DNA of 64,000 nucleotides, taken from contig DAOSLF010000010.1 in the NCBI GenBank assembly GCA_035368605.1, forward strand, positions 766 to 64,765. The letters run 5' to 3'. Both the position numbers and the translations under genes were made by a program. The notes under the pieces are model-generated. The model had not been told where the DNA came from and did not search any database. It saw only the letters and a list, made by a program, of their open reading frames with translations. Positions within the stretch are counted from its first letter, which is position 1, and every line of letters starts with the position of its first letter. This document shows, in pieces, positions 1,221-17,725 of the stretch. Source of the DNA: Candidatus Omnitrophota bacterium (GTDB lineage Bacteria; Omnitrophota; Omnitrophia; Omnitrophales; Aquincolibacteriaceae).

Positions 1221-2471
1221 ATGCATCAACATCCCGCAAGTGAACCGCCCTCCCAAGCCAGCTTTTCCGGTCTCGGAATAGCGCCCCGGATTCTCGATAC
1301 CCTGTGCCGGCTCGGGTTCAGGGTGCCGACCCCGATCCAGCAGAAGGCCATCCCCATAGCTATCGAAGGGCATGACGTGATCGGCATCGCGCAAACCGGT
1401 ACCGGCAAGACCATGGCCTTCGGAATTCCGATGATCCAGCGCCTGGCAACCGGGGAGGGCCGCGGCCTGATCCTGGTCCCGACCCGCGAGCTCGCGCTCC
1501 AGGTCCATCAAAGTCTTCGCAAGATCGCCCCGCAGAAGAAATTCGCCGTCCTGATCGGCGGCGCCTCGATGCACAAGCAGATCCAGGAACTCCGCCAGCA
1601 CCCGCGTATCATTATCGCGACACCGGGCCGCCTGATCGACCATATGGAACAGCGGTACGTGTTCATAAACGACGTCAAAATCCTCGTTCTCGACGAAGCG
1701 GACCGGATGCTCGACATGGGCTTCGCGCCGCAAATCAACCAGATCCTGCGGAAGCTCCCCCGCGAGCGCCAGACAATGCTCTTCTCCGCCACGATGCCGG
1801 ACCAGATCATGAAGATCGCCTCCCGGCACATGAAACTTCCCGTCTCGGTCGAAATCGCGAAATCCGGCACAGTCGCGGAAAAGATCACGCAGGAGGTCTT
1901 CATCGTCAAAAAAGAAGCGAAACGGCAGCTGCTTCAGAAGCTTCTCGCGCAGTACCACGGAACCGTCCTCATTTTCTCGCGCACCAAGATCAACGCCTGG
2001 AAGATCAACAAGGCGGTCCGCGATATGGGTCACAAATCTGCCGAGATCCACGCGGACCGATCGCTCAACCAGCGCAGGGAAGCTCTCGACGGTTTCAAGA
2101 GCGGCCGTTACCGCATCCTCGTCGCGACCGATATCGCCGCGCGAGGCATCGACGTCGACGGAATCGAGCTCGTCATCAATTACGACCTGCCTGACGAGGC
2201 GGAAAATTACATCCACCGGATCGGCCGTACCGGCCGGATCGGCCACAAGGGACACGCCATTTCCTTCGCGACGCCGGAGCAGGGCAAAGAGGTCAAGAAC
2301 ATCGAAAAGCTCATGCGGATGGCCCTTCCCGTCTCGGAACATCCCGAGATGCCGCTCGAAAAATTCATTGCGGTCAAACCCCAGATCGTTGCCTCTTTCT
2401 CCGGCCGCCATTTCAGCCGGGGCCGTCGCTCCCGCGGATTCATCTCCTCCGCTTTTCGCAGGGCCCGGTAA
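1221..2471 (+). CDS. DEAD-box ATP-dependent RNA helicase with RG-rich C-terminal tail
   Basis: Q-motif (PTPIQ), Walker A AQTGTGKT, DEAD, SAT, HRIGRTGR motifs. Confidence 0.9.
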   Translation: MHQHPASEPPSQASFSGLGIAPRILDTLCRLGFRVPTPIQQKAIPIAIEGHDVIGIAQTGTGKTMAFGIPMIQRLATGEGRGLILVPTRELALQVHQSLRKIAPQKKFAVLIGGASMHKQIQELRQHPRIIIATPGRLIDHMEQRYVFINDVKILVLDEADRMLDMGFAPQINQILRKLPRERQTMLFSATMPDQIMKIASRHMKLPVSVEIAKSGTVAEKITQEVFIVKKEAKRQLLQKLLAQYHGTVLIFSRTKINAWKINKAVRDMGHKSAEIHADRSLNQRREALDGFKSGRYRILVATDIAARGIDVDGIELVINYDLPDEAENYIHRIGRTGRIGHKGHAISFATPEQGKEVKNIEKLMRMALPVSEHPEMPLEKFIAVKPQIVASFSGRHFSRGRRSRGFISSAFRRAR

Positions 2472-2755
2472 AATCAAATCCGCGGACGCTCACCGATAAA
2501 CGCAAAACAAGTGTCCCTGTTTCTGGCCGGCGGAACTCCGCTCTCTTCGAGGAACAGAAAGGTTGGAGGTCATGTGTCAGTCCCGCAGAAAAGAAAGGCT
2601 GAAACGCGGGTCGTGCGGTTTTTGCAGACGGATTTTTTATTTCCCTGCCAGAAGGATAGTGTTACACTATCGCTCTTCTATCATAAAAAGAACGGGGGCA
2701 CTCGTTTTTTGCCCATAGCAGGAGCGGCCCCGTATTCCCCAGGGAGGGTTTGGTA

Positions 2756-3505
2756 ATGTACAAGCTCGTTCTGATTCGTCACGGCGAAAGCATCTGGAAC
2801 AAGGAGAACCGGTTCACCGGCTGGTATGACGTGGACCTCTCCGAAAAAGGTCTTCAGGAGGCCAGGGACGGCGGCGCCCTTCTCAAAAAAGAAGGCTACA
2901 CCTTCGACGTCGCCTTCACCTCCGTTCTCAAACGCGCGATCCGCACCCTGTGGAACGTCCTCGATCAGATGGACCTGATGTGGATCCCTGTCATCCGGGA
3001 CTGGCGGCTGAACGAGCGTCATTACGGGGCGCTGCAGGGTCTCAACAAATCCGAAACGGCCATCAAGTACGGCGAGGCGCAGGTCAAGATCTGGCGCCGC
3101 AGTTACGACACGCCGCCCCCAAAGCTTGAACCGAACGATCCACGGAGCCCGGCGTTCGACCCGCGCTACAAGAACCTCAAGCCGAACGAACTGCCGCTCA
3201 CGGAATGCCTCAAGGACACCGTCGCGCGCGTGATCCCCTTCTGGAACGATACGATCGCGCCGGCCATCAAATCCGGCAAGAAGGTCCTCGTCGCGGCGCA
3301 TGGCAACAGCCTCCGCGCGATGGTAAAATTCCTCGATAATATCCCCGAAAGCGAGATCGTGGAGCTCAACATCCCGACCGGCATGCCGCTCGTCTACGAG
3401 CTCGACAAGGACCTGAAGCCGATCAGACATTACTATCTCGGCGATCCGGAAAAGATCAAGGCGGCGATGGAAGCCGTCGCGAACCAGGGGAAGGCGAAGA
3501 AATAA
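2756..3505 (+). CDS. gpmA: 2,3-bisphosphoglycerate-dependent phosphoglycerate mutase
   Basis: LIRHGESxWN catalytic His motif, RHYG and full-length dPGM similarity. ATG at 2756 preceded by GGGAGGG. Confidence 0.9.
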
Positions 3506-3700
3506 TCGCCACGCGTGCCGCGCCGCACGAAGAAGATCCTTCTCTCGCGGCATGTGCTGTGCGGCTTTTTGTCCGGTTTGAACAGAAAGGAAAAATAACG
3601 CGTCTCGGGTTCATGGCGACCCGCCGGCCCTTCATCTTCGGCGTGAGTTTTCCGCTTTCCGGCATCGCCGTCGCTTGAGCCTGTTCGCCGAAGAACCGTC

Positions 3701-4828
3701 TTATTCTTTCCGAAGCAGGAACCCGAAAACGTCTTCCGAGAGAAATTTCCCCCGCGTCGTGAGTCTCAGCGAATCACCGGCCCATTCCAGAAATCCCCCG
3801 TCGAGAAGTTCCCGGACCCTGTCCTTGATCCTCTCGTAGAGAACCGGAAAACGGGATGGGGCCGCACCTCCGCAAAGCCTCAGCCGCATCGTGAAACTTT
3901 CGGTCTCCTTGTCTTCCTCGCTCAAGACATCTTCGACATCGTTCGTCCACTCACCGGTCTCGCACTTCCTGAAATAGCCTTCGAGGTCATGCGCGAATCC
4001 GGAACGGACACCGGCAAGATAAGAGAATGAACCGGGCCCCAGGCCGAGATATTCCTCGTTGCGCCAGTAGATGAGGTTGTGCCGCGAGGCGAAACCCGGC
4101 CGTGCGAAGTTCGAGATCTCATAATGCTCGTACCCGGCGCCGGTGAGCGTGCGGATCGCGGCTTCATACATCGCCGCGTGTACCTGTTCGGCCGGTAAAT
4201 CGAGCTTTTGCTCGCGTTGCATGCGCCCGAAGACCGTCTCCTCGTGGATTTCGAGGTCGTAAAGGGAAACCTGGGAAACGCCGAGCCCGACCGCGCGGCA
4301 GAGCGAATCCCGGAAATCCACGACCGTTTGTCCCGGGAGGCGCAACATGAGATCCAGGCTGACATTGGTGATCCCGGCGCCGCGGATCCGGTCGAGCGTC
4401 ACGATCGTGTCATGGGCCGTATGCCGTCGTCCGAGCCTTTGGAGGATATCATCCCGGAATGACTGGGCACCGAGGCTGATCCGGTTCGCGCCGAGCGCCG
4501 AAAAGGCCCTCAGTTTTTCTTCATCGCCATCGCCGGGGTTCCATTCGCAGGTGATCTCCGCCCCCGGCCGGACCCCGAACGCCGCGCGGATCCTGTTTGC
4601 AATCTCCGTCATTTCGTCCTCGGTCAAAAGCGAGGGCGTGCCGCCTCCGAAATAGATCGTATCAAATTCAATCGCGCCGTGTTCCGCGCGCGCGTGGTCA
4701 AGCTCCCTGAAAAGACAGTTAAAGAATCTCCGCCGCACATCCGGCCCGGGGTCCGCGATCGAGATAAAATGGCAGTAATGGCACCTCGACTTGCAGAATG
4801 GGATGTGGATGTATAAACCTTTTTTCAT
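3701..4828 (-). CDS. hemW: radical SAM HemN-family protein (HemW-like heme chaperone / oxygen-independent coproporphyrinogen oxidase-like)
   Basis: N-terminal YIHIPFCxxxCxYC radical-SAM cluster motif and HemN C-terminal domain length. Confidence 0.8.
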   Translation of the reverse strand: MKKGLYIHIPFCKSRCHYCHFISIADPGPDVRRRFFNCLFRELDHARAEHGAIEFDTIYFGGGTPSLLTEDEMTEIANRIRAAFGVRPGAEITCEWNPGDGDEEKLRAFSALGANRISLGAQSFRDDILQRLGRRHTAHDTIVTLDRIRGAGITNVSLDLMLRLPGQTVVDFRDSLCRAVGLGVSQVSLYDLEIHEETVFGRMQREQKLDLPAEQVHAAMYEAAIRTLTGAGYEHYEISNFARPGFASRHNLIYWRNEEYLGLGPGSFSYLAGVRSGFAHDLEGYFRKCETGEWTNDVEDVLSEEDKETESFTMRLRLCGGAAPSRFPVLYERIKDRVRELLDGGFLEWAGDSLRLTTRGKFLSEDVFGFLLRKE

Positions 4829-4903: not shown

Positions 4904-5581
4904 CTATTCCTTTTTCAGCCGCCCGAGCAATCTCAAGAATCCGTCGAGGATGGTCATCGGATGCGGCGGGCAGCCGGGAATATAAAGGTCCACCGGGATT
5001 ATCGTGTCCAGGCCCCGGGACACTTCGGGACTCCGGGAAAAGATTCCCCCCGAGATCGCGCAGGCGCCCACGGCGATCACGATTTTGGGGTCCGGCACCG
5101 CCTCATAGGTCTTGAGGAGCGCCTCTTTCATATTACGCGTCACGGGGCCCGTGACGAGGACTCCGTCGGCATGACGCGGCGAGGCCACGAACTGGATACC
5201 GAAGCGGCTGAGGTCGAAAACGGGGGTGTTCAGGACGTTCGTATCCGCCTCGCAGGCATTACACCCCCCCGCTGAAACCTGCCTCAATTTGAGAGACCTG
5301 CCGAACAACTTCACGATCTTTCGATTCACCGCGCGCGCCAAGGCATACGTTTCGCCCTGAAGGACGAGATCCTGCCGGCGGCATGTCGCCATACGGAAGT
5401 CGTTGGAATGACGGATGCTGCTGTCCGGAACAAAGGTTATCTTTCCGAGATCGATCTCCTCCTCCGGGCCTGCCACGAGGGGACGACCGCGGTAGCGGGC
5501 GGGCAGAACCGGCGGTTTTCGTTTGGGAAAAGCCATCGTCCGGCACCCCTGCCTGAAACGCGTCATCAAGATCTTCAGCAT
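4904..5581 (-). CDS. group-4 hydrogenase small-subunit-like / NuoB-like protein (EhrS-like)
   Basis: Four Cys of the proximal FeS cluster are retained (GGCNAC, GACAISGG, GCPPHP). GAGG RBS upstream of the start at 5581. Confidence 0.75.
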   Translation of the reverse strand: MLKILMTRFRQGCRTMAFPKRKPPVLPARYRGRPLVAGPEEEIDLGKITFVPDSSIRHSNDFRMATCRRQDLVLQGETYALARAVNRKIVKLFGRSLKLRQVSAGGCNACEADTNVLNTPVFDLSRFGIQFVASPRHADGVLVTGPVTRNMKEALLKTYEAVPDPKIVIAVGACAISGGIFSRSPEVSRGLDTIIPVDLYIPGCPPHPMTILDGFLRLLGRLKKE

Positions 5582-5612
5582 ACCGGGACCTCGTTTTCAT
5601 TCGCGGCGCGGA

Positions 5613-7124
5613 TCATAGATCGTGCCCGCTGTAGGACAAATTAAAGCTCTTGTTGCACAATGGAAAATCCGAAATCTCCTGACCGCGCATGGCAAGAGTC
5701 AGCGCGAACCAGTTATGGAACGAGGGGTCCTTGATCTTGTAACGGCGCAGGCCTCCCCGGCCGTCGGTGAACGCCACATGCATGATTTCACCACGCCATC
5801 CTTCGACCATGGAAACAGCCAGCGCGCCCGGCGCGAGAGGCCCGGGGGCGGAAAAAATCGCACCCTGGGGCAAAGAGGCGAGAATCCTCTGCAGGAATTC
5901 CAGGGAGCGCATCACCTCCTGCCGTCGCACCAGCGCCCGGGCGTAAACGTCCCCGGTGACCGCGAGCGAAATGGGAACATGATAAAACCGCCAGATCCCG
6001 GAAGAATGATCGACGCGCGCATCACGCTCCACCTGACTCGCGCGCGCGGCGGGCCCGACCATCCCCATCTTTTTCGCGTCATCGGGGGAAACGGTTCCAA
6101 TGCCTTCAAACCGCGCGAGGACCGAGGGTCGGCTAAAAAGCAGATCGCTCACCTCTTCAAACTCCTTTTGATAACGTCGAAGCTTCCGGCGAAAATCTTC
6201 GGCCATGGAGGCCTCCATATCAAAAAGGACCCCGCCGGGGCGGCATAACCCTTTACCGAAGCGGTTCCCCGTCAACTCAAGCAGCAGATTCAGATAATCA
6301 CCCCGCATGCGGCCAAAATACGCGCTGGTCGGAAGAAACCCCGCGTCCATCCCGAGCGCGCCCAAATCCCCCACGTGGTTTGTGAGCCGCTCCAGTTCGA
6401 GCGCGATCGCGCGGATGGCCTGCGCCTTGAGCGGCACCGCGCAGCCCGCAAGGGATTCGACGGCCTCGCAGAAGGCCAGGGAATGTCCGATGGAGGTATC
6501 CCCCGCGACGGATTCGCTCAAAAGCACACTCCGGTTCAGGTCCCGCCCGCACATCATCGGTTCGATCCCGCGGTGCTGGTAGCCCAACTGGATCTCAAGA
6601 TGCATCACCTCTTCGCCGTGACACTGGAAACGGAAATGCCCCGGTTCGATAATGCCGGCATGCACGGGGCCCACACCCACTTCATGGACCTCTTCGCCGT
6701 CTACCGCATAAAAAGGATAGACCCCGGGGATCGTCCGCTTCGCGATCTCATCCCAGAGGTCGGGGCCGCCCCGGTAATTCACATGATAGCGGACGGGTTT
6801 GAGCCAGGGATGCCCTTCCGGGAGAACCGCCCATTGTTCCGCGATCTCGCGCTCGAAAAGATGCGCTTCGGGAAGCTCCGGCGTCAACGCGACATACCGG
6901 GGAGATCCCGGGGAGACCCTCATCGACAACACCTCAAGCTCCGGGTTCTCGTCCGCCGCGAGAATCGCGGCCAAACGAATATCCCCTCCCTCTTCCGGGA
7001 TCCCGAACAGATTGGCAAGCCGCGCGCCCTCACGACAGCGAAGGATCACTGTCTCGCGAAACTCTTTTTCCGCGAGAAGCGGGACATCCTTCCAGAAACT
7101 ACGCACACCGTTAAACAGTTCCAT
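5613..7124 (-). CDS. fused NuoC-like/large-subunit-like protein of an energy-converting hydrogenase-related complex (EhrL-like), lacking NiFe ligands
   Basis: HycE/NuoCD-like fold. The N-terminal RxCGxCxxxH site reads ...ESVAGDTSIGHSLAFC... (no CxxC). The C-terminal DPCxxCxxH site reads DFPLCNKSF (single Cys). Confidence 0.75.
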   Translation of the reverse strand: MELFNGVRSFWKDVPLLAEKEFRETVILRCREGARLANLFGIPEEGGDIRLAAILAADENPELEVLSMRVSPGSPRYVALTPELPEAHLFEREIAEQWAVLPEGHPWLKPVRYHVNYRGGPDLWDEIAKRTIPGVYPFYAVDGEEVHEVGVGPVHAGIIEPGHFRFQCHGEEVMHLEIQLGYQHRGIEPMMCGRDLNRSVLLSESVAGDTSIGHSLAFCEAVESLAGCAVPLKAQAIRAIALELERLTNHVGDLGALGMDAGFLPTSAYFGRMRGDYLNLLLELTGNRFGKGLCRPGGVLFDMEASMAEDFRRKLRRYQKEFEEVSDLLFSRPSVLARFEGIGTVSPDDAKKMGMVGPAARASQVERDARVDHSSGIWRFYHVPISLAVTGDVYARALVRRQEVMRSLEFLQRILASLPQGAIFSAPGPLAPGALAVSMVEGWRGEIMHVAFTDGRGGLRRYKIKDPSFHNWFALTLAMRGQEISDFPLCNKSFNLSYSGHDL

Positions 7125-7132
7125 CGATCCTC

Positions 7133-8560
7133 TCAGGCCCCGATCAGGGCCGCCGCTTCATGCAAAAGACCGCTCAAGGGGGCCGGCATCCAGAGTCCCA
7201 GCCCGACAAGCAGCGCGGCGGCGGCCGCTATGGTGATATTCATGAATAAATTCTCGCGCGGGGCCGGGGCCGGTTCTACCGGTTTGCCGTAGACGAGATC
7301 CAGCACGAGCCTCGAAATCCCCATGAAAATGACGGCCAGACACACAATGATGATCCCGGCCAGGACGTAATGCTCCGAGATAACGGAGGCGTTGATAATC
7401 AAAAGTTCGCTGTGAAAGGTCGCAAACGGGAACATCCCGGTCCCCGCCAGAAGCGCCACGAGCAGAAAAACGCCTGTCACGGGATAGAGATGAATGACCC
7501 CCCGGACCTCCGGGGCGCGGGACGATCCGTATTTCTGGGCAAGGGACCCCGCCGTGAGGAACATCACCACCTTGGCAAGGGCATTATTGATCATGTGGAA
7601 CAAGGCGCCGAAGACCCCGACTCCGCCCATGCCGAGCCCGAGGACCAGCAATCCCACATGCTCGACCGAGGAGAACGCGAAGGACCGCTTGAGGCTCTTC
7701 TCATCCAGGAGAAATACCGCGGGAACCACGAGCGACAGAACACCGGCCACGATCAAGATCGATCCGTAGAAATCGCCGAGCCCTGTTTTGTGACAGATCT
7801 GGCTCACGCGCATCAACGCGAGGAAAGAGCACTGGGTCAATCCCCCCGCCATCAGGACCGACACCATACCCGTCGCCTGGCCATAGGCCTCCGGCTTCCA
7901 GCTGTGCATTGGGGCAAGCCCCATCTTGCAACCGTATCCCACGAACAGGAAAATAACGCTCAATTTCAGCCAGCTGGTTGAAAGCAGGGGCGCGTTGTTC
8001 AGGATCGCGGGCAGGAGAAGCGTACGCGTCTCGTGGGCCGCGATCGCAAGGAAGAACGTTCCCATGAGCGCGAGCGCGATCCCGACGGAGCAAACCAGCA
8101 GATATTTCCAGGTAGCCTCCAGGCTTTTCCAGTTCCGGTGAAAGCTGATCAAAGGCGCGCTGAAAAGCGTGGTCGTTTCGATCGCCACCCACATCAGCCC
8201 GAGATGATAGCTCACCGACACCATCGTCGTCATCGAAAGCAGGCACAGGATGCAGGCCGTGAACGTGCGGTTGTTCCGGTGCTCGCGTTCGAAATAACCA
8301 ATCATGAAGAAAGACGTCGCCAGGAAAAGAAGGTCCAGGATCGAAAGGAGGAGGAGGCCGAGAGGATCGAGCACGAAATAGCCCTGAAGTTCCGGACCCG
8401 GCCGCCGCCACCAGAAGGACGCCACGACTGAGGCGTGGAAGAGCGAAACCGCGCACAGGAGCCGGACCCTGAAGATGTTTTTCGCCGGCAACAGGACAAT
8501 CAGAGCGGCGATCAGCGGGACCGCGATCAGAAGGATCAGCGTCATCAGCTCTCCCCCCAC
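7133..8560 (-). CDS. NuoM/N-like antiporter-type membrane subunit (HyfF-like)
   Basis: 475 aa, about 14 TM helices, PF00361-like conserved core. Confidence 0.7.
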   Translation of the reverse strand: MGGELMTLILLIAVPLIAALIVLLPAKNIFRVRLLCAVSLFHASVVASFWWRRPGPELQGYFVLDPLGLLLLSILDLLFLATSFFMIGYFEREHRNNRTFTACILCLLSMTTMVSVSYHLGLMWVAIETTTLFSAPLISFHRNWKSLEATWKYLLVCSVGIALALMGTFFLAIAAHETRTLLLPAILNNAPLLSTSWLKLSVIFLFVGYGCKMGLAPMHSWKPEAYGQATGMVSVLMAGGLTQCSFLALMRVSQICHKTGLGDFYGSILIVAGVLSLVVPAVFLLDEKSLKRSFAFSSVEHVGLLVLGLGMGGVGVFGALFHMINNALAKVVMFLTAGSLAQKYGSSRAPEVRGVIHLYPVTGVFLLVALLAGTGMFPFATFHSELLIINASVISEHYVLAGIIIVCLAVIFMGISRLVLDLVYGKPVEPAPAPRENLFMNITIAAAAALLVGLGLWMPAPLSGLLHEAAALIGA

Positions 8561-9195
8561 CTGGGCCGCCGCCCCGTGGAACGGGTGCGTTCGAACTCCT
8601 CGTTGATATGGTTGAGGACGATGGCCATGACAAAGACCGCGACAAAGATATCCAGCAGGATGCCCATTTCGATCGGCACCGGCATCGTGTCAAAGAGCGA
8701 CAGCGCGAAAAGGAAAATGCCGTTTTCGATCACCATGTAGCCCAGGACCTGCGTGACCGCGCGGGTCCGCGTCACCATCGTCATGAAACCGAGAAGGATC
8801 GTCGCCAGCGAACAAGGCAGGACCAGGCTCGACTCAAGCTTCCCGGGAAGTTTCATCGCGAGCGAGATCCAGAAGGCCACGGCGATCAGCACCGCTCCGC
8901 AGAGGATCGAAGCGCCGAGGCCCAGGATTGGCCTGACCTCGGAACGCATCGAAATGTGCCGGAGCTCCCAGAAAAGGACAGCGGGTACGAGCCCGGCCTT
9001 GAGCACCATCGTCACAAGCGAAACGGCGAGATCGCGTCCCGCAATAATGCCCCCGTGAAGGAAAAGCGGGACAAGACCCAGGAAAAACGACTGGACGGCA
9101 AATATCTTGATCATCCCCACAATGCGGTGCGTCGCGAGCAGAGTCAACGACAGGAACACCGCCAGGATACAGATCACATCGATCCAGGGCGTCAT
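8545..9195 (-). CDS. HyfE-like small polytopic membrane subunit
   Basis: 216 aa hydrophobic protein at the hyfE-equivalent position in the operon. Confidence 0.5.
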   Translation of the reverse strand: MTPWIDVICILAVFLSLTLLATHRIVGMIKIFAVQSFFLGLVPLFLHGGIIAGRDLAVSLVTMVLKAGLVPAVLFWELRHISMRSEVRPILGLGASILCGAVLIAVAFWISLAMKLPGKLESSLVLPCSLATILLGFMTMVTRTRAVTQVLGYMVIENGIFLFALSLFDTMPVPIEMGILLDIFVAVFVMAIVLNHINEEFERTRSTGRRPRWGES

Positions 9196-9199
9196 CGCT

Positions 9200-10135
9200 T
9201 CAGTTCCTCCATAGAGTGACGATCAGGCTGAAGAAGGCCAGGGCGAACGCGATCAGGAGAAGCAGCCTTACCCGATTGAGACGCAGGCGCGCCATAATGG
9301 ACTCCACGATCCCCACGAGAACCGCCATCGCGAACACCCCGCCAAGGAAGATCCCGGTGTCGACCGCCGGATGCCCCGTCCGCACGGGGATGATGATCGA
9401 AACCAGGATCGCGAAAAAGAGAAACAACTTCATCGCTGAGGCATAGAGCAGATAACCGAGGTCGACCCCGCTGTGATCCAGGATCATCACTTCATGGATC
9501 ATCGTGAGTTCCAAATGAGTGTCCGGATCGTCGACCGGGATACGGCAATTTTCCGCAAGGAGCACGATAAAAAAACTCCCCACCACGAGCAGCAGCACCG
9601 GATCCAGGCCTTTCCACGACATCGGGATATCGGCACCGATCATCCGGGAGAGCGAAAGACTCTCGGAAAGCAGCGACAGCGTGATGAAATTCATGAAAAG
9701 GGCCAGCTCCGACAGACACGAAAAAAAAGCTTCGCGGCTCGCTCCCATACCCTCGAAGCTGGACCCGGTATCCAGGGCGGCCAGGATCATGAAGAACCGG
9801 CCCAGCGCCAAAAGGTAGGCGACCAGCAGGATGTCTCCGGGAAACTGCACCGGGGCCCGGAACCTTCCGAAGGGAACCATCAGGGACAGGATCAACATGA
9901 CCGCGAGAGAGACGACCGGGGACGCGCGAAAAATCCACGTCGTCGTGGAACTGTAGACACATTTCTTGCGAAAGAGCTTCGCCAGGTCGAAGTAGGGCTG
10001 AAGGAGCGAAGGCCCCTTTTTCCCCGCGAAAAACGCCTTCACCCTGGCGATCACGCCGAAGAGCGCCGGCGACAACGCGCCGATGACCAGCCAGTGGAGC
10101 AGGAACGTGACCGCCTTATTGAACAGTAGACTCAC
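9200..10135 (-). CDS. NuoH/HycD-like membrane subunit
   Basis: 311 aa polytopic membrane protein with NuoH-like conserved charged loops, at the hyfC-equivalent position. Confidence 0.7.
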   Translation of the reverse strand: MSLLFNKAVTFLLHWLVIGALSPALFGVIARVKAFFAGKKGPSLLQPYFDLAKLFRKKCVYSSTTTWIFRASPVVSLAVMLILSLMVPFGRFRAPVQFPGDILLVAYLLALGRFFMILAALDTGSSFEGMGASREAFFSCLSELALFMNFITLSLLSESLSLSRMIGADIPMSWKGLDPVLLLVVGSFFIVLLAENCRIPVDDPDTHLELTMIHEVMILDHSGVDLGYLLYASAMKLFLFFAILVSIIIPVRTGHPAVDTGIFLGGVFAMAVLVGIVESIMARLRLNRVRLLLLIAFALAFFSLIVTLWRN

Positions 10136-10149
10136 ACGCCGCCTCGATT

Positions 10150-11973
10150 TTATTTAAGTTTCCAGATCAGCAAAAACACCAGAAACAAAAGAATATACAT
10201 CAGGTAAAGCTGGGTATAGCGGATGCGGCTATGCCCCAGTTTTTTGGAGATCTCGTTCGACAAGGCCAGTCCGGGCCGGAATATCATTTCTTCGGAAGCA
10301 TCGTGCACCGAGGACTTCATGTGCGCCTTGCCCGGGAAAACGCCGGTCACCTGTCCCCCGCGCCTCCGGAAAAGCAGGATGTTTTTCATCAGTTCGACGA
10401 TCATCCGGGCAAAGGAAGCGGACGTGTACTGGATTCGCGACGATACCGCCACAAAACCGCAACTCCATGTCTCCCGGACCGGCAGGGGCTTCGTCCCGAG
10501 GAAAAGACGCCGGAGGAGGACGAGTCCCAGGATCAGCGCGAGGAAAAGGAGCGCCATCCGGACCACCGTCGCGAGCGGACCAAGGACAGTCCCGAGCCTG
10601 ACCGCAAAGGCATCGGTATGCGCGAGATAAGTTCCGCCGCCAAAGATCAGGCTCGTCACGGACTGCGGCACAAGACCGATCCAGAGGCATAAGGCCGCGA
10701 GGATCGCCATAGGAAGGAGCATTGAAAACGGCGTGCCCTCGGGCGCGCCGTCCGTTTTGATATCGGTCCGGGGCTTGCCCAGGAAAACAATCCCGTAGAC
10801 CTTGCTGAAACAGGCCAGCGCAAGCGCCCCCATCAGCGCAAGCGAAAGGATCCCGAGCGAACAGGCGACCACCCCCTCGGGCGGAAGTTCCCGGAGCCCG
10901 GTGAAAAGACCGAAATAAATGAGAAACTCGCTCACGAAACCGTTAAAGAGCGGCAGTCCGCAGATCGACAAGGCCCCCGCGAGAAAGAAACCGGCGGTCC
11001 AGGGCATCGTCTTCGCGAGGCCCCCGAGGTGATCCATCTCGCCGGAATGCGTCCGGTGGATGACGGACCCCGCCCCGAGGAAAAGAAGACCCTTGAAAAG
11101 GGCGTGATTCACAACATGCAAAAGCGCCCCGCCGAACCCCAGGACCGCAAGAAACGGGACCTGATGGCTGCGACCCAACAGTCCGACGCCAAGTCCGACC
11201 GCGATGATGCCGATATTCTCGATGCTGTGATAGGCGAGCAACCGTTTCAGCTCGTGCTGGCCGAGCGCGTACAGAACGCCCATCAGACCGGAAACGATGC
11301 CGAGGGCCAAAAGCGTGTAACCACACCAGCCGGGAAGGGTCTTCACGATCCAGAGGACCCGGCAAATCCCGTAGATCCCCATCTTGATCGCGATCCCCGA
11401 CAAAAGCGCGGAGATATGCGCCGGGGCCGCCGGGTGCGCGTACGGCAGCCAGATATGCGTCGGAAGGAATCCCGCCTTGACGCCAAAACCGGCCAGCGCC
11501 AGGAGGAAGGCCAGCGCCGCGACGGCCTGCGGGAAATCCGTTCGCGCCATCACGTCAAAATCCATCGAACCCGCCGCGTGGGCCATTAAAAAGAACATCA
11601 GAAAAAGGAAGAACGTCGCACAATGGGACGCGATCAGATAGATGAATCCCGCCTGCCGCACCGCCGGTTTTTCATCGTCGAAAATAATCAGAAAGAACGT
11701 CGAAAGGGTCATAACCTCCCAGGCGCCGAGAAAAAGAATCGCGTTCCCGGCGGTGACGATAAGGACCATAGCCGCCATAAAAACCAGATAGAAAAACGCG
11801 TGGATCCCGAGAGGCTTCTTTCCCCGGTAAGGACGCAGGTAACCTGTGCCATAGATGGCGCTCGACAAAACGAGAACCACGATCGCCGCGAGGAAGACGA
11901 GGTTCAGGGGATCCAGGCGGAGCGAACATTCGCCAAACGGAACCGTCCAAGGGCCCCGGAAGATTTTTTCCAC
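10150..11973 (-). CDS. NuoL/HyfB-like antiporter-type membrane subunit
   Basis: 607 aa, more than 15 TM helices, proton-pumping antiporter-like core. Confidence 0.8.
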   Translation of the reverse strand: MEKIFRGPWTVPFGECSLRLDPLNLVFLAAIVVLVLSSAIYGTGYLRPYRGKKPLGIHAFFYLVFMAAMVLIVTAGNAILFLGAWEVMTLSTFFLIIFDDEKPAVRQAGFIYLIASHCATFFLFLMFFLMAHAAGSMDFDVMARTDFPQAVAALAFLLALAGFGVKAGFLPTHIWLPYAHPAAPAHISALLSGIAIKMGIYGICRVLWIVKTLPGWCGYTLLALGIVSGLMGVLYALGQHELKRLLAYHSIENIGIIAVGLGVGLLGRSHQVPFLAVLGFGGALLHVVNHALFKGLLFLGAGSVIHRTHSGEMDHLGGLAKTMPWTAGFFLAGALSICGLPLFNGFVSEFLIYFGLFTGLRELPPEGVVACSLGILSLALMGALALACFSKVYGIVFLGKPRTDIKTDGAPEGTPFSMLLPMAILAALCLWIGLVPQSVTSLIFGGGTYLAHTDAFAVRLGTVLGPLATVVRMALLFLALILGLVLLRRLFLGTKPLPVRETWSCGFVAVSSRIQYTSASFARMIVELMKNILLFRRRGGQVTGVFPGKAHMKSSVHDASEEMIFRPGLALSNEISKKLGHSRIRYTQLYLMYILLFLVFLLIWKLK

Positions 11974-12657
11974 TTAGGAGCCCCCGCCTGTTTTTGCTTC
12001 CGCAACCTGGAACGCGGTAAGGATTTCTTCGGGACTTGCGCGGCGGTCCAGGGCCGTTTTCACGGAGAGGTCCTGAAGACAAAAAGCCAACCGGGAGAGA
12101 AGCGACAGATGCCCCCTGAAGGAACCGGACAGGATCACGAACAGGGTGTGAACCCGCTCTCCGTCCGGCGCGGCAAAATTCACCGGCTTTTCGAGAAAAA
12201 AAAGTCCCACGATCGGATCCAGGCCGGCAAAGATCACGGGATGTTTGACGTGCGGGATGGCAATACCGTTCCCGATGCCCGTCGTGCCGACCTGCTCGCG
12301 GGAGATGAGCATCGCCTTCAGGGAAAGCTTGTCGACGGAGGCCGGAAGCGGAAGGGCGTTCAGAACTTCCCCGAAGATCTCGTCGCGTCGCTCCCCTTTA
12401 ACACCGGTATGAACCCCGCCGCGGAGGAGGGCGGGCGTCAGGATATCCTGGCCCGGGCGATTCCTTTCGCAGAGTTTCAGGGCCCCAAGGGTCAGGGGGA
12501 TGCGGTGTTTGAGGGCCCATTCCAGGACTTCCACGGAATTGAACAGGTATTGTCCGTTGGCCTTGACCGCCGGCATACCCCGGTCGTTGAGCCACTGGTA
12601 GAGCGTTTTCTCATCGACCTCGAAAGCCTTTTCAATCTTGCGGAAAGTCAGCTGCAT
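11974..12657 (-). CDS. HTH (excisionase/MerR-like) DNA-binding domain fused to a PTS EIIA type-2 (PtsN-like) domain
   Basis: N-terminal HTH-like segment. C-terminal GIAIPH phospho-His motif of PTS EIIA-2. Its stop abuts the start of the NuoL-like gene (first gene of the cluster). Confidence 0.7.
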   Translation of the reverse strand: MQLTFRKIEKAFEVDEKTLYQWLNDRGMPAVKANGQYLFNSVEVLEWALKHRIPLTLGALKLCERNRPGQDILTPALLRGGVHTGVKGERRDEIFGEVLNALPLPASVDKLSLKAMLISREQVGTTGIGNGIAIPHVKHPVIFAGLDPIVGLFFLEKPVNFAAPDGERVHTLFVILSGSFRGHLSLLSRLAFCLQDLSVKTALDRRASPEEILTAFQVAEAKTGGGS

Positions 12658-13026
12658 ATCATTTCCTGTCCGGTGAGAGACCCGAAAAACAAGGCTCCCC
12701 GGCCCGGTGTTACTTCATGGCACAAAATGATTTGATACAAGGTTGGAGACGCCGCGGACCCTGAACGATCCGTTCACTCATGTTAATCTCATCACAGACA
12801 GCCGATCATTTGCCAAGCTGGCTTTGCGGGCTGATGAAGCGGACATTACAGATCGTAAGACCAAAAGATTTCTTGCCATACGCGTCTACGTGTATTCACG
12901 CATACTAGAGCAAATATAAAAACTGTCAATGCCCCCTCATGGCTTTTCGCGGTATGCGCCGTGTGGCGTATGGCATGTCATACATTCTATTTGATTCCCC
13001 TGTTAAAATCAGTAAGCTTTGTTGCC

Positions 13027-14241
13027 ATGAACTCCCCAAAAAGCAAGGCACTTCGTCTCATCCTCCTCTTCGGATGCGTCAGTCTCTTTGGTGACATCAT
13101 TTATGAGGGCGCGCGCAGCGTCAACGGTCCCTACCTCAAGGTCCTCGGCGCAAACGCTCTTCTCGTCGGCGTCATCGCGGGGATCGGTGAGTTCCTCGGG
13201 TACACGATCCGTCTTTTTTCCGGCTATCTTTCCGACAAGACGCGTTCCTACTGGTTCTTCACGATCCTCGGCTACGCGTTGATCGTCTCGGTGCCGCTCC
13301 TCGCGTTCACGTCCCTCTGGCACGTCGCGGCGCTCCTGATCGTGGCGGAACGGATCGGGAAGGCCCTCCGCAGCCCGGCCAAAGACACGATCCTGTCACA
13401 GGCCACCAAACAGGTCGGCACCGGCTTCGGCTTCGGGCTGAACGAGATGATGGATCAGATCGGCGCGCTCGCCGGTCCGCTCATCTTCACGTTTTTCTTC
13501 CTGTCGAAAGGCGCGGGGGATCGGACGCTCGCGGACTACCAGCACGGCTACGGTCTCTTTTGGATCCCCTTTGCGCTCCTGATGCTCTGCGTGCTCTTCG
13601 CGTGGCGGAGTGTCCCTGACCCCGCGGCGCTCGAGCCTGCGAAAACGAACGAGCCGGACAAGCTCCCGAAGGTCTTCTGGACCTATACAGTGTTCAGTTT
13701 TCTCACAACCATGGGTTTCGTGAACTTCGTCCTGCTCGCCTTCCACTACAAAACACGGCAGGTACTCTCGGACATGGAGATTCCGCTCTATTACGCGATC
13801 GCGATGGGCGTGGACGGCGCCGCGGCGCTCGGCGTCGGAAAACTCTACGATATCCTGAAAGAAAAGAACGGCCACGATCACGGAGGACTCGCGACGCTCA
13901 TCGTGATCCCGGTCCTTTCGGCCCTGATCCCCTTCCTCGCTTTCTCGGGATCGCGGTGGGTCGTGGCCGCCGGGATCATCCTCTGGGGCATCGTCATGGC
14001 CTGCCATGAGACCATCATGAAATCCGCGATCGCAGATATCACGCCGCTCCGGAAAAGAGGCACGGGTTACGGGGTTCTCAATACTGCCTACGGCCTCGCG
14101 ATGCTGACGGGAGGTGTCTTGACGGGTTATCTGTACGACCGGTCCCTCCCTCTTCTGATCGGCGCGACGGTCACACTGCAGATATTCTCTCTTCCCTTCT
14201 TCATGTCGATCCAAAAAAGCGTTGCCGAAACGAAGACGTAA
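13027..14241 (+). CDS. MFS transporter
   Basis: 12 predicted TM helices and the MFS loop motif (GxLSDKxxR-like). Confidence 0.7.
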   Translation: MNSPKSKALRLILLFGCVSLFGDIIYEGARSVNGPYLKVLGANALLVGVIAGIGEFLGYTIRLFSGYLSDKTRSYWFFTILGYALIVSVPLLAFTSLWHVAALLIVAERIGKALRSPAKDTILSQATKQVGTGFGFGLNEMMDQIGALAGPLIFTFFFLSKGAGDRTLADYQHGYGLFWIPFALLMLCVLFAWRSVPDPAALEPAKTNEPDKLPKVFWTYTVFSFLTTMGFVNFVLLAFHYKTRQVLSDMEIPLYYAIAMGVDGAAALGVGKLYDILKEKNGHDHGGLATLIVIPVLSALIPFLAFSGSRWVVAAGIILWGIVMACHETIMKSAIADITPLRKRGTGYGVLNTAYGLAMLTGGVLTGYLYDRSLPLLIGATVTLQIFSLPFFMSIQKSVAETKT

Positions 14242-14431: not shown

Positions 14432-16216
14432 TCAGCTGTTCTGAATGGCGGTCTGGTTCTTGCCGGAAGCCTTGGCTTTGAGCAGGGCCTCCCGGGCCCG
14501 CTGGACAACTTTATCCGGATTTTTTTCACCCGGCTTCAGTACCGCGACGCCGGCACTGACCGTGACATGGAAGGAAGGGTCACCGGCCTTGTCCGTCCTG
14601 AATTCGATCCGCTCAAGCGATTTCCGGATCCGCTCGGCGATGCCGAACGTGACTGTCGCGAGGTTGTATCCCGCGAGAAGCACGATGAATTCTTCGTCTC
14701 CGTAGCGGCCCGCGACATCGGGGACAACGCGGCCTTTCGTCCGGATCGCACCGCGGATCACCTCCGCCACGCGCTTGAGAACGATATTACCCATGCGGTA
14801 CCCGTAAACGTCATTGACTTTTCTGAAATCGTCGATGTCGAGGAGGATGACGGCGAACGGCTTGCGAAAGGTTTGAGCATAACGCATGGCCTGAACCAGA
14901 AATGTCGAGACATAACGCATCACGTAGAGCCCGGTCAGTTCGTCGCGCGCGGCCAGGTTGAGAAAATACATGCGCTCACGACGTTCGGCGATCTTGCCGG
15001 TCACCCCCGAGATCAGGAGAAACAGCGCGATCAAAAGGATCTGCGGGACAACACCGAACCACACGTTCGCTCCGCTGAAAAGCCAGAAAGACAGAAGCGC
15101 CCAGAGGGCCGCCAGGGCCGCCGCGGCGAGCATGGCATAAACACCCCGGATCGAGAGCATCACGGCCCCCGCGGCCAGCGCGACAAGGATCAGGCCGGCG
15201 GCCGCCTCGGCGGACGACGGAATCCGGATGAAATCCTCCGTCAGGATCATGTTGATGATGTTGCCGGTCACGCCGATCCCCGGTGTCGCGGCATCAAGGG
15301 GGGTTCTTTTGAAATCGGAAGCGGTCAGACCGATCAGGCATATCCTGTTCTTGAAATCTTCCGGCCGGATCGGGCTCGTCTGGCCCTTCTGGATTGCCGC
15401 GTACCCGTTCAGGATATCCGCGAAGGGATAATACCCCGAAAGGGCGTTCCATTTTTTCGTCCAGCGAATCATGAGATTGTTATTCCGGTCGAGGGGCAGC
15501 GCGCATTCCGCGGGCGGCGGCACGCTCTTCCCGAGATGGTCATAAGCGACGCGGAAACCAAGGTGCGGCAGCAGGTTCCGGTTGAACTTCACGTAGGGGT
15601 AGGCGCGACGGATCACCCCGTCGGGGTCTGGCGTGTAATTGATGTGGCCGATGCCCCGGGCTTCCGCGGCGTAGAGAGAATCCGACTGGTTCACGTAATA
15701 GTAGTTCCGGAAACCTTCCGATTCAAAGGAAAGGGGCAGGTAGATGTTCCCGGACCTATTGAACTCCGCGAGCAACGCCTCGTTGTCCTCCTGCGAGTCC
15801 CCGGCCTGCGAAAAGAAAAGATTAAAGACGACCGTCTTCGCGCCCCACTCCCGGAGGATGCGGGCCATGGCCGCATAGTAGCGCTTGGGCCAGGGAAACT
15901 GTTTGACGGACTGCAGGCTTTTGCGGTCAATCCCGATGTAAACAATGTCCGGACTGACGGGAGAGTCTCCCTGCGCCTTCAAGAAAATATCGAAAACACG
16001 ATTATCGAGATTCTGCACCCACGCGGTCTGTGAATGCCCGAGGAAGCAGATGAGAACCAGAAGGAAGGAAAGCAGCTGGATCAGACGGAGCGGCGTAAAA
16101 AAAACGACAATCCGCCGCAGCAGCTCGGTCGCGTATCCCTGCCGCCGGCGGACGAGACCTTGGGGCGTCTTTTCCATGAATCCGATACCGCCTTTCCTAG
16201 CTATGGGGTTCTCCAA
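14432..16216 (-). CDS. membrane sensor with periplasmic CHASE2-like domain and C-terminal GGDEF domain (motif reads GDEEF)
   Basis: N-terminal TM, long periplasmic segment, 3-TM block, then a GGDEF fold (DxFKxxND, RYGDEEF). Confidence 0.8.
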   Translation of the reverse strand: MENPIARKGGIGFMEKTPQGLVRRRQGYATELLRRIVVFFTPLRLIQLLSFLLVLICFLGHSQTAWVQNLDNRVFDIFLKAQGDSPVSPDIVYIGIDRKSLQSVKQFPWPKRYYAAMARILREWGAKTVVFNLFFSQAGDSQEDNEALLAEFNRSGNIYLPLSFESEGFRNYYYVNQSDSLYAAEARGIGHINYTPDPDGVIRRAYPYVKFNRNLLPHLGFRVAYDHLGKSVPPPAECALPLDRNNNLMIRWTKKWNALSGYYPFADILNGYAAIQKGQTSPIRPEDFKNRICLIGLTASDFKRTPLDAATPGIGVTGNIINMILTEDFIRIPSSAEAAAGLILVALAAGAVMLSIRGVYAMLAAAALAALWALLSFWLFSGANVWFGVVPQILLIALFLLISGVTGKIAERRERMYFLNLAARDELTGLYVMRYVSTFLVQAMRYAQTFRKPFAVILLDIDDFRKVNDVYGYRMGNIVLKRVAEVIRGAIRTKGRVVPDVAGRYGDEEFIVLLAGYNLATVTFGIAERIRKSLERIEFRTDKAGDPSFHVTVSAGVAVLKPGEKNPDKVVQRAREALLKAKASGKNQTAIQNS

Positions 16217-17065: not shown

Positions 17066-17725
17066 TCATTCCATCATCAAACCCTTGAGAATGGCTGTTT
17101 CCCTTTGAGCATCCCGATGCTTCTCCACAAAGTTTTGATATTCCGCAGATGTAAAATCAAAAACACCTTGAAACGCACAAAGCCCTGGCTCCTGGGACGA
17201 CCGGGACAAATACTCCTGATAGGAAGAGTGCTCCCATTCGCCCGGCTTGTTGACCAGACCGGCGCTCGCAGGATTCAAATGGATATAGCGTGACAAATGC
17301 AAGGCTTGTTCATTTGTTTTGACGCGAACATTTTTGAAGCGCCCCTCCCAAAGGGGTCCTTTCCGCTTATGCCTCAGATTAAAATACCGCGCATAACCAT
17401 TGAGGAGCCTTCCCATGAAAACAGATATACCGTTCGTTGCGGATTGCCTGAGAAACAAATGAATATGGGTCGGCATAAGGCAATAGGCGATAATATGAAC
17501 CAGTCGTTCTTTCTCCCGCCGCTCGGTCATCCGCGGGGTCATGTCCTTTCCAAGCCGTTTGAGCCACGAAAATTTCATGGCAGGATCCGAAACCTGGTGA
17601 AACTCCAGAAGCGATTTCATTCGGTCGAATTCGTCTTTATGGTTAAAAATGACGAATCCCGCGATACTTTTCGTATAAACATGGTAATACTCCCCCGTCG
17701 CCAACGGATCCTTGCGAACCTGCAT
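17066..17725 (-). mobile_element. REP-associated tyrosine transposase (RAYT, IS200/IS605 TnpA-like HUH enzyme)
   Basis: GEYYHVYTK N-terminal motif, HUH motif PTHIHLFL, catalytic Tyr motif YIHLNP. Flanked by inverted REP copies. Confidence 0.8.

Follow-up and report, generated by a model that had tools for sequence, protein, structure and literature searches.

In a 64,000-nt stretch of DNA from an Omnitrophota bacterium, hereafter called the window, we analysed a cluster of seven tightly packed genes on the minus strand (4904-12657) with the order R-ehrABCDLS. The genes ehrA to ehrS encode the six subunits of an energy-converting hydrogenase-related (Ehr) complex, and R encodes a helix-turn-helix (HTH) domain fused to a PtsN-like EIIA domain of the phosphotransferase system (PTS). 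Our conclusion is that the operon probably specifies an Ehr complex together with R as a phosphorylation-dependent switch that is coupled to it. The Ehr class is already known; what is added here is the conserved companion R and the reduced form of EhrS and EhrA in the Omnitrophota. Judged by its protein sequences, the cluster is a member of this class and a reduced variant of it, in which EhrA is truncated and one Fe-S site is left.

The genes were assigned by Pfam and NCBIfam profile searches. They are separated by very short spacers, and a HemW gene follows as the eighth open reading frame (ORF). All coordinates of the locus are given on the window.

11974-12657 (-): R, 227 aa, HTH_17 (26.9 bits) and PTS_EIIA_2 (64.7 bits)
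10150-11973 (-): EhrA, 607 aa, HyfB/NuoL-type antiporter-like subunit, best match HyfB (NF005086, 552 bits)
9200-10135 (-): EhrB, 311 aa, NuoH/HyfC-like membrane subunit (NADHdh PF00146, E 3e-32)
8545-9195 (-): EhrC, 216 aa, HyfE-like membrane subunit (NF008556, 81 bits, E 1.3e-22), weak match to Oxidored_q2
7133-8560 (-): EhrD, 475 aa as the longest ORF (start at 8545 and 470 aa in the public annotation), HyfF/NuoN-type antiporter-like subunit (HyfF, 278 bits)
5613-7124 (-): EhrL, 503 aa, NuoC-NuoD/HycE-type large subunit, weak matches to Complex1_30kDa and Complex1_49kDa
4904-5581 (-): EhrS, vestigial HycF/NuoI-like N-terminal region (about aa 1-100) and HycG/NuoB-like domain (Oxidored_q6)

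The TAA stop codon of R is followed directly by the GTG start codon of EhrA. A first-pass annotation of the DNA had already seen that this stop abuts the start of a NuoL-like gene, and the profile matches bear out both the fusion of an HTH domain to a PTS EIIA-2 domain with the GIAIPH motif in the first gene and the order of NuoL-, NuoH-, HyfE-, NuoM/N-, large- and small-subunit-like genes after it. The nearest homologues of EhrL and of R are all from Candidatus Omnitrophota.

Subunits of the Ehr complex

The closest solved relative of the large subunit is HycE of E. coli (7z0s_E, E 4e-53), followed by MbhL and Nqo4; a structure of an Ehr complex was not found in the PDB search. In the alignment with HycE (PDB 7z0s), RVCGICGFAHS pairs with SVAGDTSIGHS of EhrL, where AGDT stands in place of CGIC (6483-6509), and DPCYSC pairs with NLSYSG. 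With A, T, S and G in the places of the four Ni-Fe cysteines, EhrL should be unable to bind Ni-Fe. Its C-terminus is DFPLCNKSFNLSYSGHDL (5616-5669), and an extension for protease processing is absent. The tyrosine of the quinone site in Nqo4, Tyr87, is aligned to a glycine in EhrL.

The Ni-Fe cysteines were missing from 170 of the 179 sequences of an EhrL set, which consisted of orthologues from the genome loci, the best representatives from a search of 1.8 billion proteins, and HycE, HyfG and NuoCD of E. coli. Their positions were occupied by ATSG, SSSG, ASSG and similar combinations with the pattern xxSG; CCCC was seen only in HycE, HyfG and six representatives. A family-specific aspartate, D209, is located between the two former L1 cysteines and is kept in 94% of the 170 cysteine-less homologues. 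The loss of both NiFe CxxC motifs, which had been noticed in the first reading of the DNA with sequencing errors named as an escape, is borne out by the HycE alignment and by these homologues. It is not an error, since the substitutions recur in the 170 homologues and three independent assemblies (NCBI, ENA and Logan) agree: all carry the same locus, and the tested proteins were 100% identical by tblastn. One of the assemblies is the Omnitrophota metagenome-assembled genome (MAG) GCA_029553765.1.

The phylogeny of the large subunit was calculated by neighbour-joining from the 179 sequences, rooted on NuoCD, with 100 bootstraps. EhrL of the window was found deep in the cysteine-less clade, and HycE, HyfG and NuoCD were outside in 99 of 100 bootstraps, so that EhrL is not a bona fide NuoD, the outcome against which this tree had originally been proposed as a check. 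The separation of the cysteine-less sequences from the six cysteine-containing relatives was weak (45/100), which is consistent with published statements that place Ehr close to the group 4f or 4a enzymes. The identity of the window EhrL was 33-36% to the cysteine-containing relatives, 29.8% to HycE, 27.9% to HyfG and 21.8% to NuoCD.

The small subunit EhrS keeps the proximal-cluster cysteines C107, C110, C174 and C204, in agreement with the four FeS cysteines counted before, and its orthologues share the consensus SAGGCNACEA in the first motif. The C-terminal half of the EhrS family profile matched HyfI and HycG (1e-48), to both of which the window protein is 47% identical, and the N-terminal half matched HycF (3e-24), HyfH (8e-23) and NuoI (3e-19). 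The earlier statement that the cluster lacks hyfA, hyfD and hyfH was correct for HyfA/HycB and HyfD, but the HyfH/HycF domain is fused to the N-terminus of EhrS and is vestigial in the window. In most phyla EhrS has two ferredoxin motifs, CxxxCxxCxxxCP and CxxCxxCxxxCP. Both are lost in the Omnitrophota proteins (the window and loci L004 and L005), which are about 30 residues shorter, and therefore a single Fe-S cluster and no obvious electron-relay path are predicted for the window complex. This loss is a lineage variant that does not exclude membership in the Ehr class. The proximal Fe-S cysteines, which are strictly kept, argue for some redox role.

EhrS of several Gemmatimonadota (L013, L014, L016, L017, L019 and L049) has also lost the second ferredoxin motif (GACLFSPEEA...), and in some cases the first one as well. 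This partial loss is independent of the complete loss in the Omnitrophota and parallel to it.

In the membrane arm, the match of EhrA to the HyfB profile starts at position 66 of 669, and the protein is shorter by about 60 N-terminal residues. EhrA retains the glutamate of transmembrane segment (TM) 5 (E86), the lysines of TM7 (K166) and TM8 (K197) and the glutamate of TM12 (E349). EhrD retains E128, K212 and E385, all the key residues except the lysine of TM8, with the same pattern as HyfF. In the predicted proteins, the two antiporter-like subunits thus keep the charged residues by which complex I and Hyf translocate ions. The EhrB orthologues in the related loci are 43-81% identical.

Ehr has been described as a complex of HyfB, NuoH, HyfE, HyfF, a NuoC-NuoD fusion and a NuoI-NuoB fusion without Ni-Fe ligands (PMC6349859 Supplementary Note 4; PMC10284858). 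The window cluster has this six-subunit set, no CxxC at L1 and L2, a large subunit in the cysteine-less clade and the four proximal-cluster cysteines; what it lacks are the two [4Fe-4S] motifs in the HycF/NuoI-type domain. The assignment to the six-subunit Ehr complexes by the first-pass annotation is upheld, since the composition equals the published one and EhrL belongs to the cysteine-less clade. The same annotation had spoken of an ion-translocating redox complex; the Ehr type stands, but with two Fe-S clusters gone in this lineage the word redox carries less weight.

Two other identities of the cluster were considered. That it is a genuine group 4 [NiFe]-hydrogenase of the Hyf/FHL (formate hydrogenlyase) type, with cysteines lost by sequence errors, is practically out of the question, although the Hyf-like gene order, the best profile matches and HycE as the closest solved structure all point in its direction. 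The L1 and L2 cysteine ligands of such an enzyme are missing, their four positions are substituted in the 170 homologues as well as in the three identical assemblies, and neither a C-terminal processing extension nor, among the assigned genes of the cluster, a separate HyfA/HycB-type gene was found, which refutes this identity at the sequence level. The profiles of Pfam and NCBIfam also match NuoB, NuoD, NuoH, NuoL, NuoM and NuoN, as would be expected of a split respiratory complex I (NuoB, C, D, H, L, M and N) with the other nuo genes elsewhere in the genome. We regard this as very improbable: the quinone-site tyrosine is absent, EhrC is HyfE-like, the small subunit has the HycG-type CxxC, and the genes for the NuoEFG input module and for NuoA, NuoJ and NuoK are not in the cluster. 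A split complex I was therefore rejected from the exclusion of NuoCD in the tree (99/100) and from the identity of EhrL to it, which ranks at 21.8% below that to HycE (29.8%) and to the cysteine-containing group 4 relatives (33-36%).

R as a companion of Ehr across phyla

Over 147 aa, R and PtsN of E. coli share 35% identity (E 2e-15). Its residue H136 is located in the loop GIGNGIAIPH (12250-12279), which is identical in E. coli PtsN, and is aligned to the PtsN residue H73. A second conserved histidine is present in GHLSLLS (12094-12114). The AlphaFold2 model of R shows two domains and is confident, with a predicted local distance difference test (pLDDT) of 87.7 and a predicted template modelling score (pTM) of 0.85. 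Its best fold matches in the PDB were PtsN/EIIA-Ntr structures (3urr, 2a0j and 1a6j), and R combines the EIIA_2 fold with a phospho-accepting histidine in the GIAIPH loop. The N-terminal domain has the order beta-alpha-alpha-beta-beta-alpha of the excisionase/MerR-type HTH fold. A full-length structural analogue was not found in the PDB fold comparison. PRD domains, as they occur between HTH and EIIA in MtlR and LicR, are absent from R, whose 227 aa contain only HTH_17 and EIIA_2.

The distribution of R was followed in a scan with one genome per species, which gave at least 599 EhrL loci. The best 80, examined by tblastn with the window proteins, came from many phyla and had about 50% identity. 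Of the 54 genome loci that could be evaluated, 44 have R (43 by the automatic count and a frameshifted copy in L021). The loci that carry it belong to at least eight named phyla, with Omnitrophota, Verrucomicrobiota, Planctomycetota, Gemmatimonadota, Spirochaetota, Hydrogenedentota, Desulfobacterota and Acidobacteriota/Thermoanaerobaculia, and most have R directly upstream of EhrA. Measured from the stop codon of R, the next gene begins at -4 nt in 14 loci; in 28 of 43 the spacing falls within -11 to +10 nt. In a reverse scan of metagenomes with R, 51 Omnitrophota loci were found, and EhrA came directly after R in all 36 that had enough downstream sequence. The weaker matches, to EIIA only, came from typical rpoN/ptsN/npr/ptsI surroundings in which no Ehr cluster lies next to the gene.

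R is 65-86% identical within the Omnitrophota and about 38% across phyla, comparable to the structural subunits, and both the phospho-accepting and the second histidine are kept in nearly all orthologues. When the ORFs flanking Ehr were clustered all against all, no accessory family except R proved to be conserved, and the clustering brought up neither an NPr or Enzyme I gene nor a redox partner that is kept near Ehr. R lies between structural genes in some Verrucomicrobiota loci and in one Planctomycetota locus; in several Verrucomicrobiota loci, as well as in L071 and L063, the copy in such a position is divergent (25-27% identity). In the Planctomycetaceae loci L026 and L032, R is placed directly before ehrL and ehrS, and the A-D genes are not in the available surrounding sequence.

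Taken together, these comparisons of predicted proteins strengthen the link to the PTS that had been put forward tentatively: an HTH-EIIA gene is kept beside Ehr across phyla, the active-site histidine of PtsN is retained, and in the Thermoanaerobaculia genome L040 a complete gene for PTS Enzyme I (2084-3877, -) is located divergently beside R. The two closest Omnitrophota loci also have stand-alone EIIA_2 genes about 1-3 kb upstream of R (L090 7400-7864; L118 5723-6052). An EIIA/PtsN-like gene tied to Ehr was not mentioned in the literature searched, a search that did not extend to the founding Ehr papers, and the conserved PtsN-like partner of Ehr appears not to have been described in that literature.

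Some loci deviate in their layout. L026 has a 780-aa ORF that joins R to EhrL (9143-11485). We did not rely on it, as its R part is arginine-rich and has no active histidine; a frameshift artefact in the MAG, which may contain indel errors, or a decaying gene is more probable than a real fusion. Among the long EhrL representatives no fusion to R was seen, only L-S and D-L fusions or mis-joins. In four metagenome loci of the Omnitrophota (L102, L105, L108 and L109), R shares about 70-72% identity with the window protein, as do EhrL and EhrS where present; EhrA-D of these loci are only 43-58% identical, and EhrA, with a full-length N-terminus, starts after a gap of about 200 nt. This pattern suggests two lineages of the membrane arm or a mosaic operon within the Omnitrophota. 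In L104, L116 and L117, a near-perfect palindrome, TATATGTAAATATTTACATATA, was found about 40-70 nt upstream of the R start, beside a TTGACA...TATTAT-like promoter. It is a candidate operator that is common to these three loci only.

Neighbouring genes and the proposed working of R and Ehr

The features next to the cluster in the window, and the gene that precedes EhrA in some Desulfobulbales, are the following.

12902-12929 (-): promoter-like site, TTGACA-16 nt-TAGTAT, 10/12 consensus matches, about 245 nt upstream of the R start, putative in function
3701-4828 (-): HemW-like radical SAM gene (TIGR00539, 270 bits, cutoff 205), 75 nt downstream of EhrS
L058 15-899, L060 3694-4866, L166 10001-11182, L171, L172 and L173 9001 to about 10180: LCIB-like gene, match to LCIB_C_CA below threshold

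The leader of about 245 nt upstream of R gave no Rfam match at E <= 1, and a riboswitch or leader RNA was rejected. The HemW-like gene at the 3' end is present as first annotated, but it is a lineage-specific neighbour: among all related loci, the closest relative, L090, is the only one with HemW downstream of Ehr, and a single locus, L008 of the Verrucomicrobiota, has it upstream. It may be co-transcribed with ehr in the window and was rejected as a component of the system, since the adjacency is not conserved.

In R-less Desulfobulbales, a gene for a conserved protein of about 393 aa occupies the slot of R directly before EhrA. This was observed in six distinct loci (L058, L060, L171, L172, L173 and the near-identical L166/L167, counted once), with one Desulfobulbales exception beside a transposase remnant. 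The only Pfam relative of the protein is LCIB_C_CA (beta-carbonic-anhydrase-like), which matched 16 of 18 members with a best E of 7.9e-6, all below threshold. Its invariant residues are Cys53, Asp55, His105 and Cys132. A PDB profile search gave no match, and the AlphaFold2 model (pLDDT 43.6) was too poor for a fold test. The Ehr locus of Desulfofustis glycolicus also contains genes for a beta-carbonic anhydrase (Pro_CA) and a SulP transporter, and in L173 SulP comes directly after EhrS. Among the Omnitrophota, the same-strand genes preceding R-Ehr encode an ACT-malic enzyme in 14 of 51 loci, SulP (best match DauA) in 14 of 51 and ArsR in 18 of 51. ArsR, malic enzyme or DauA-like SulP-STAS genes lie before R in many of the loci L087-L134, often with a gap to R of less than 60 nt, and the full order ArsR-ME-SulP-R-EhrABCDLS was found in L098 (5380-9681) and L126 (5332-9672). 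From these neighbours come hints of a link between Ehr and C4 acids or CO2. The link is only a lead, because genes for SulP, malic enzyme and carbonic anhydrase are all missing from the 64-kb window, such neighbours are rare outside the Omnitrophota and Desulfobulbales (6 SulP in 80 loci), and the fold test of the LCIB-like protein failed.

Upstream of the cluster, the window contains a divergent MFS transporter (12961-14241, +), a CHASE2-GGDEF diguanylate cyclase (14432-16216, -) and an IS200-like Y1 transposase (17066-17725, -), which may account for the absence of the usual ArsR, malic enzyme and SulP neighbours. Two giant ORFs of 3601 and 4642 aa (17877-28682 and 45782-59710, both -) each contain PPDK_N, the ATP-binding domain of phosphoenolpyruvate (PEP) synthase and pyruvate phosphate dikinase. 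One also has Bac_transf and the other the PEP-utilizers mobile domain; for the most part they are without a Pfam match. Downstream of HemW, genes for a SET-domain protein (383-1093, +) and a histidine phosphatase (His_Phos_1, 2750-3505, +) have no apparent operon link.

For the working of the system we propose that R would be phosphorylated at H136 by a carrier of the HPr/NPr type and would thereby report the PEP/pyruvate or the nitrogen-PTS state. This signal could reach Ehr by two routes, and both could hold. On balance we expect the HTH domain to control the transcription of the operon, a route favoured by the excisionase/MerR-type fold of this domain and by the position of the R gene at the operon head. 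With a chance somewhat short of even, R may be bound to the EhrL/EhrS arm as a regulatory subunit. This is favoured by the translational coupling, the positions within the operon, the R-L-S mini-clusters and a conservation equal to that of the structural subunits. As for the complex itself, its most likely activity is the transport of ions through the membrane, linked to some event at the degenerate EhrL/EhrS site.

Several observations weigh against this proposal. The HTH_17 score of R (26.9 bits) is just below the Pfam cutoff of 27, and R stays far under the PtsN equivalog cutoffs (61.8 against 138.7 bits for TIGR01419 and 49.2 against 221 for NF008145). R is missing from 10 of the 54 evaluable loci, in Riflebacteria, Geothrix/Holophagaceae, one Myxococcota and some Desulfobacterota, and Ehr is therefore able to work without it. 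A gene for HPr/NPr or Enzyme I was not found within the 64-kb window, and no operator-like motif of general occurrence emerged when the regions upstream of R in 48 Omnitrophota loci were aligned and their k-mers counted. For the Omnitrophota complex the term redox-driven is doubtful, as both HycF-type clusters are lost.

The absence of a conserved operator, and the frequent occurrence of regulators at operon heads, would also fit an ordinary neighbouring transcription factor or PtsN paralogue that came to lie beside Ehr by chance. We find this hardly credible, and it is contradicted by the comparative data: the adjacency extends over at least eight phyla and 36 of 36 evaluable Omnitrophota loci, stop and start codons overlap, and R is embedded between structural genes in some lineages. 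A different alternative concerns the reaction. Ehr might not be a redox enzyme; in analogy to the NDH-1-Cup and DAB complexes, it might instead serve the metabolism of inorganic carbon or C4 acids as a machine coupled to an ion gradient, such as for a vectorial conversion of CO2/HCO3- or a decarboxylation-linked ion transport, with R gating it by the PEP/pyruvate ratio. Carbonic anhydrases on antiporter-like subunits that are coupled to the proton-motive force are a precedent (PMC13144422; PMC6981117), and the LCIB-like gene directly before EhrA in Desulfobulbales, the beta-carbonic anhydrase and SulP genes of the Desulfofustis glycolicus locus, SulP after EhrS in L173, the ACT-malic enzyme and DauA-like SulP genes before R-Ehr (14/51 each) and the loss of the electron-relay clusters in the Omnitrophota EhrS would all agree with it. 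This alternative is unlikely in our judgement. The proximal Fe-S cysteines are strictly kept, the window is devoid of SulP, malic enzyme and carbonic anhydrase genes, these neighbours are rare beyond the Omnitrophota and Desulfobulbales, and synteny within one phylum may be mere inheritance; in addition, the LCIB matches all stay below the Pfam threshold, with a model pLDDT of 43.6 and no PDB sequence match. Its most specific form is even less probable: a non-redox ion-gradient device for C4-acid decarboxylation and CO2/bicarbonate, in which the operon-head protein, R or LCIB-like, would be an attached cytoplasmic module, and R of the Omnitrophota a phospho-switch subunit that gates a single-cluster, non-electron-transferring complex by PEP/pyruvate.

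Ehr is widespread, with the at least 599 genome loci and the 170 cysteine-less sequences among the 179 compared. R as a phosphorylation-dependent switch would tie PTS signalling to complex I-type energy converters, a link found in none of the literature searched. The conserved, translationally coupled PtsN-like partner is a first specific regulatory handle on the control of Ehr, and their companionship gives a testable lead on these poorly understood complexes, as carriers such as Geobacter, Geomonas or relatives of Geothrix are cultivable. Hypotheses on the coupled reaction can be drawn from the lineage-specific loss of electron-relay clusters and from the recurrent neighbours that encode a malic enzyme, a DauA-like SulP or a carbonic-anhydrase-like protein.

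Comparison with known systems

Ehr was named about twenty years ago by Coppi and co-workers, as cited in PMC7894505, and papers up to 2023 state its function as unknown. The Ehr of Geobacter sulfurreducens (GSU0739-0745) has the same subunit set as the window cluster and a large subunit without CxxC. Orthologues in Geobacteraceae and Geomonas have an EhrL that is 46-51% identical and, as in the window, R before ehrA. The Omnitrophota version differs from that of Geobacter by the lost HycF-type Fe-S motifs and by an EhrA that is about 60 N-terminal residues shorter; where Geobacter has EhrA-1 and EhrA-2, it has just one EhrA.

Hyf/Hyc of E. coli, the formate hydrogenlyase (7z0s), resembles the cluster in its gene order B-C-E-F-G-(H)I and provides the closest solved large subunit, HycE. 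Unlike Hyf/Hyc, the window cluster is without Ni-Fe ligands, HyfA/HycB, HyfD or a formate dehydrogenase next to it, and its HycF is degenerate and fused to the small subunit. Its regulator is an HTH-EIIA protein, whereas Hyf/Hyc use the sigma54 activators HyfR/FhlA. R shares with PtsN (EIIA-Ntr) the EIIA_2 fold, the identical GIGNGIAIPH loop and the 35% identity, but it has an additional N-terminal HTH_17 domain, and its gene is part of the ehr operon and not of the rpoN operon.

The cyanobacterial NDH-1MS (CupA) and the DAB complexes, systems of energy-coupled CO2 hydration, combine complex I-type antiporter-like subunits with a carbonic-anhydrase-like protein, an arrangement mirrored by the LCIB-like gene in the Desulfobulbales Ehr. 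A carbonic-anhydrase-like gene is absent from the window and is represented in the Desulfobulbales loci by a weak LCIB-like homology, and Ehr has a degenerate hydrogenase module of its own.

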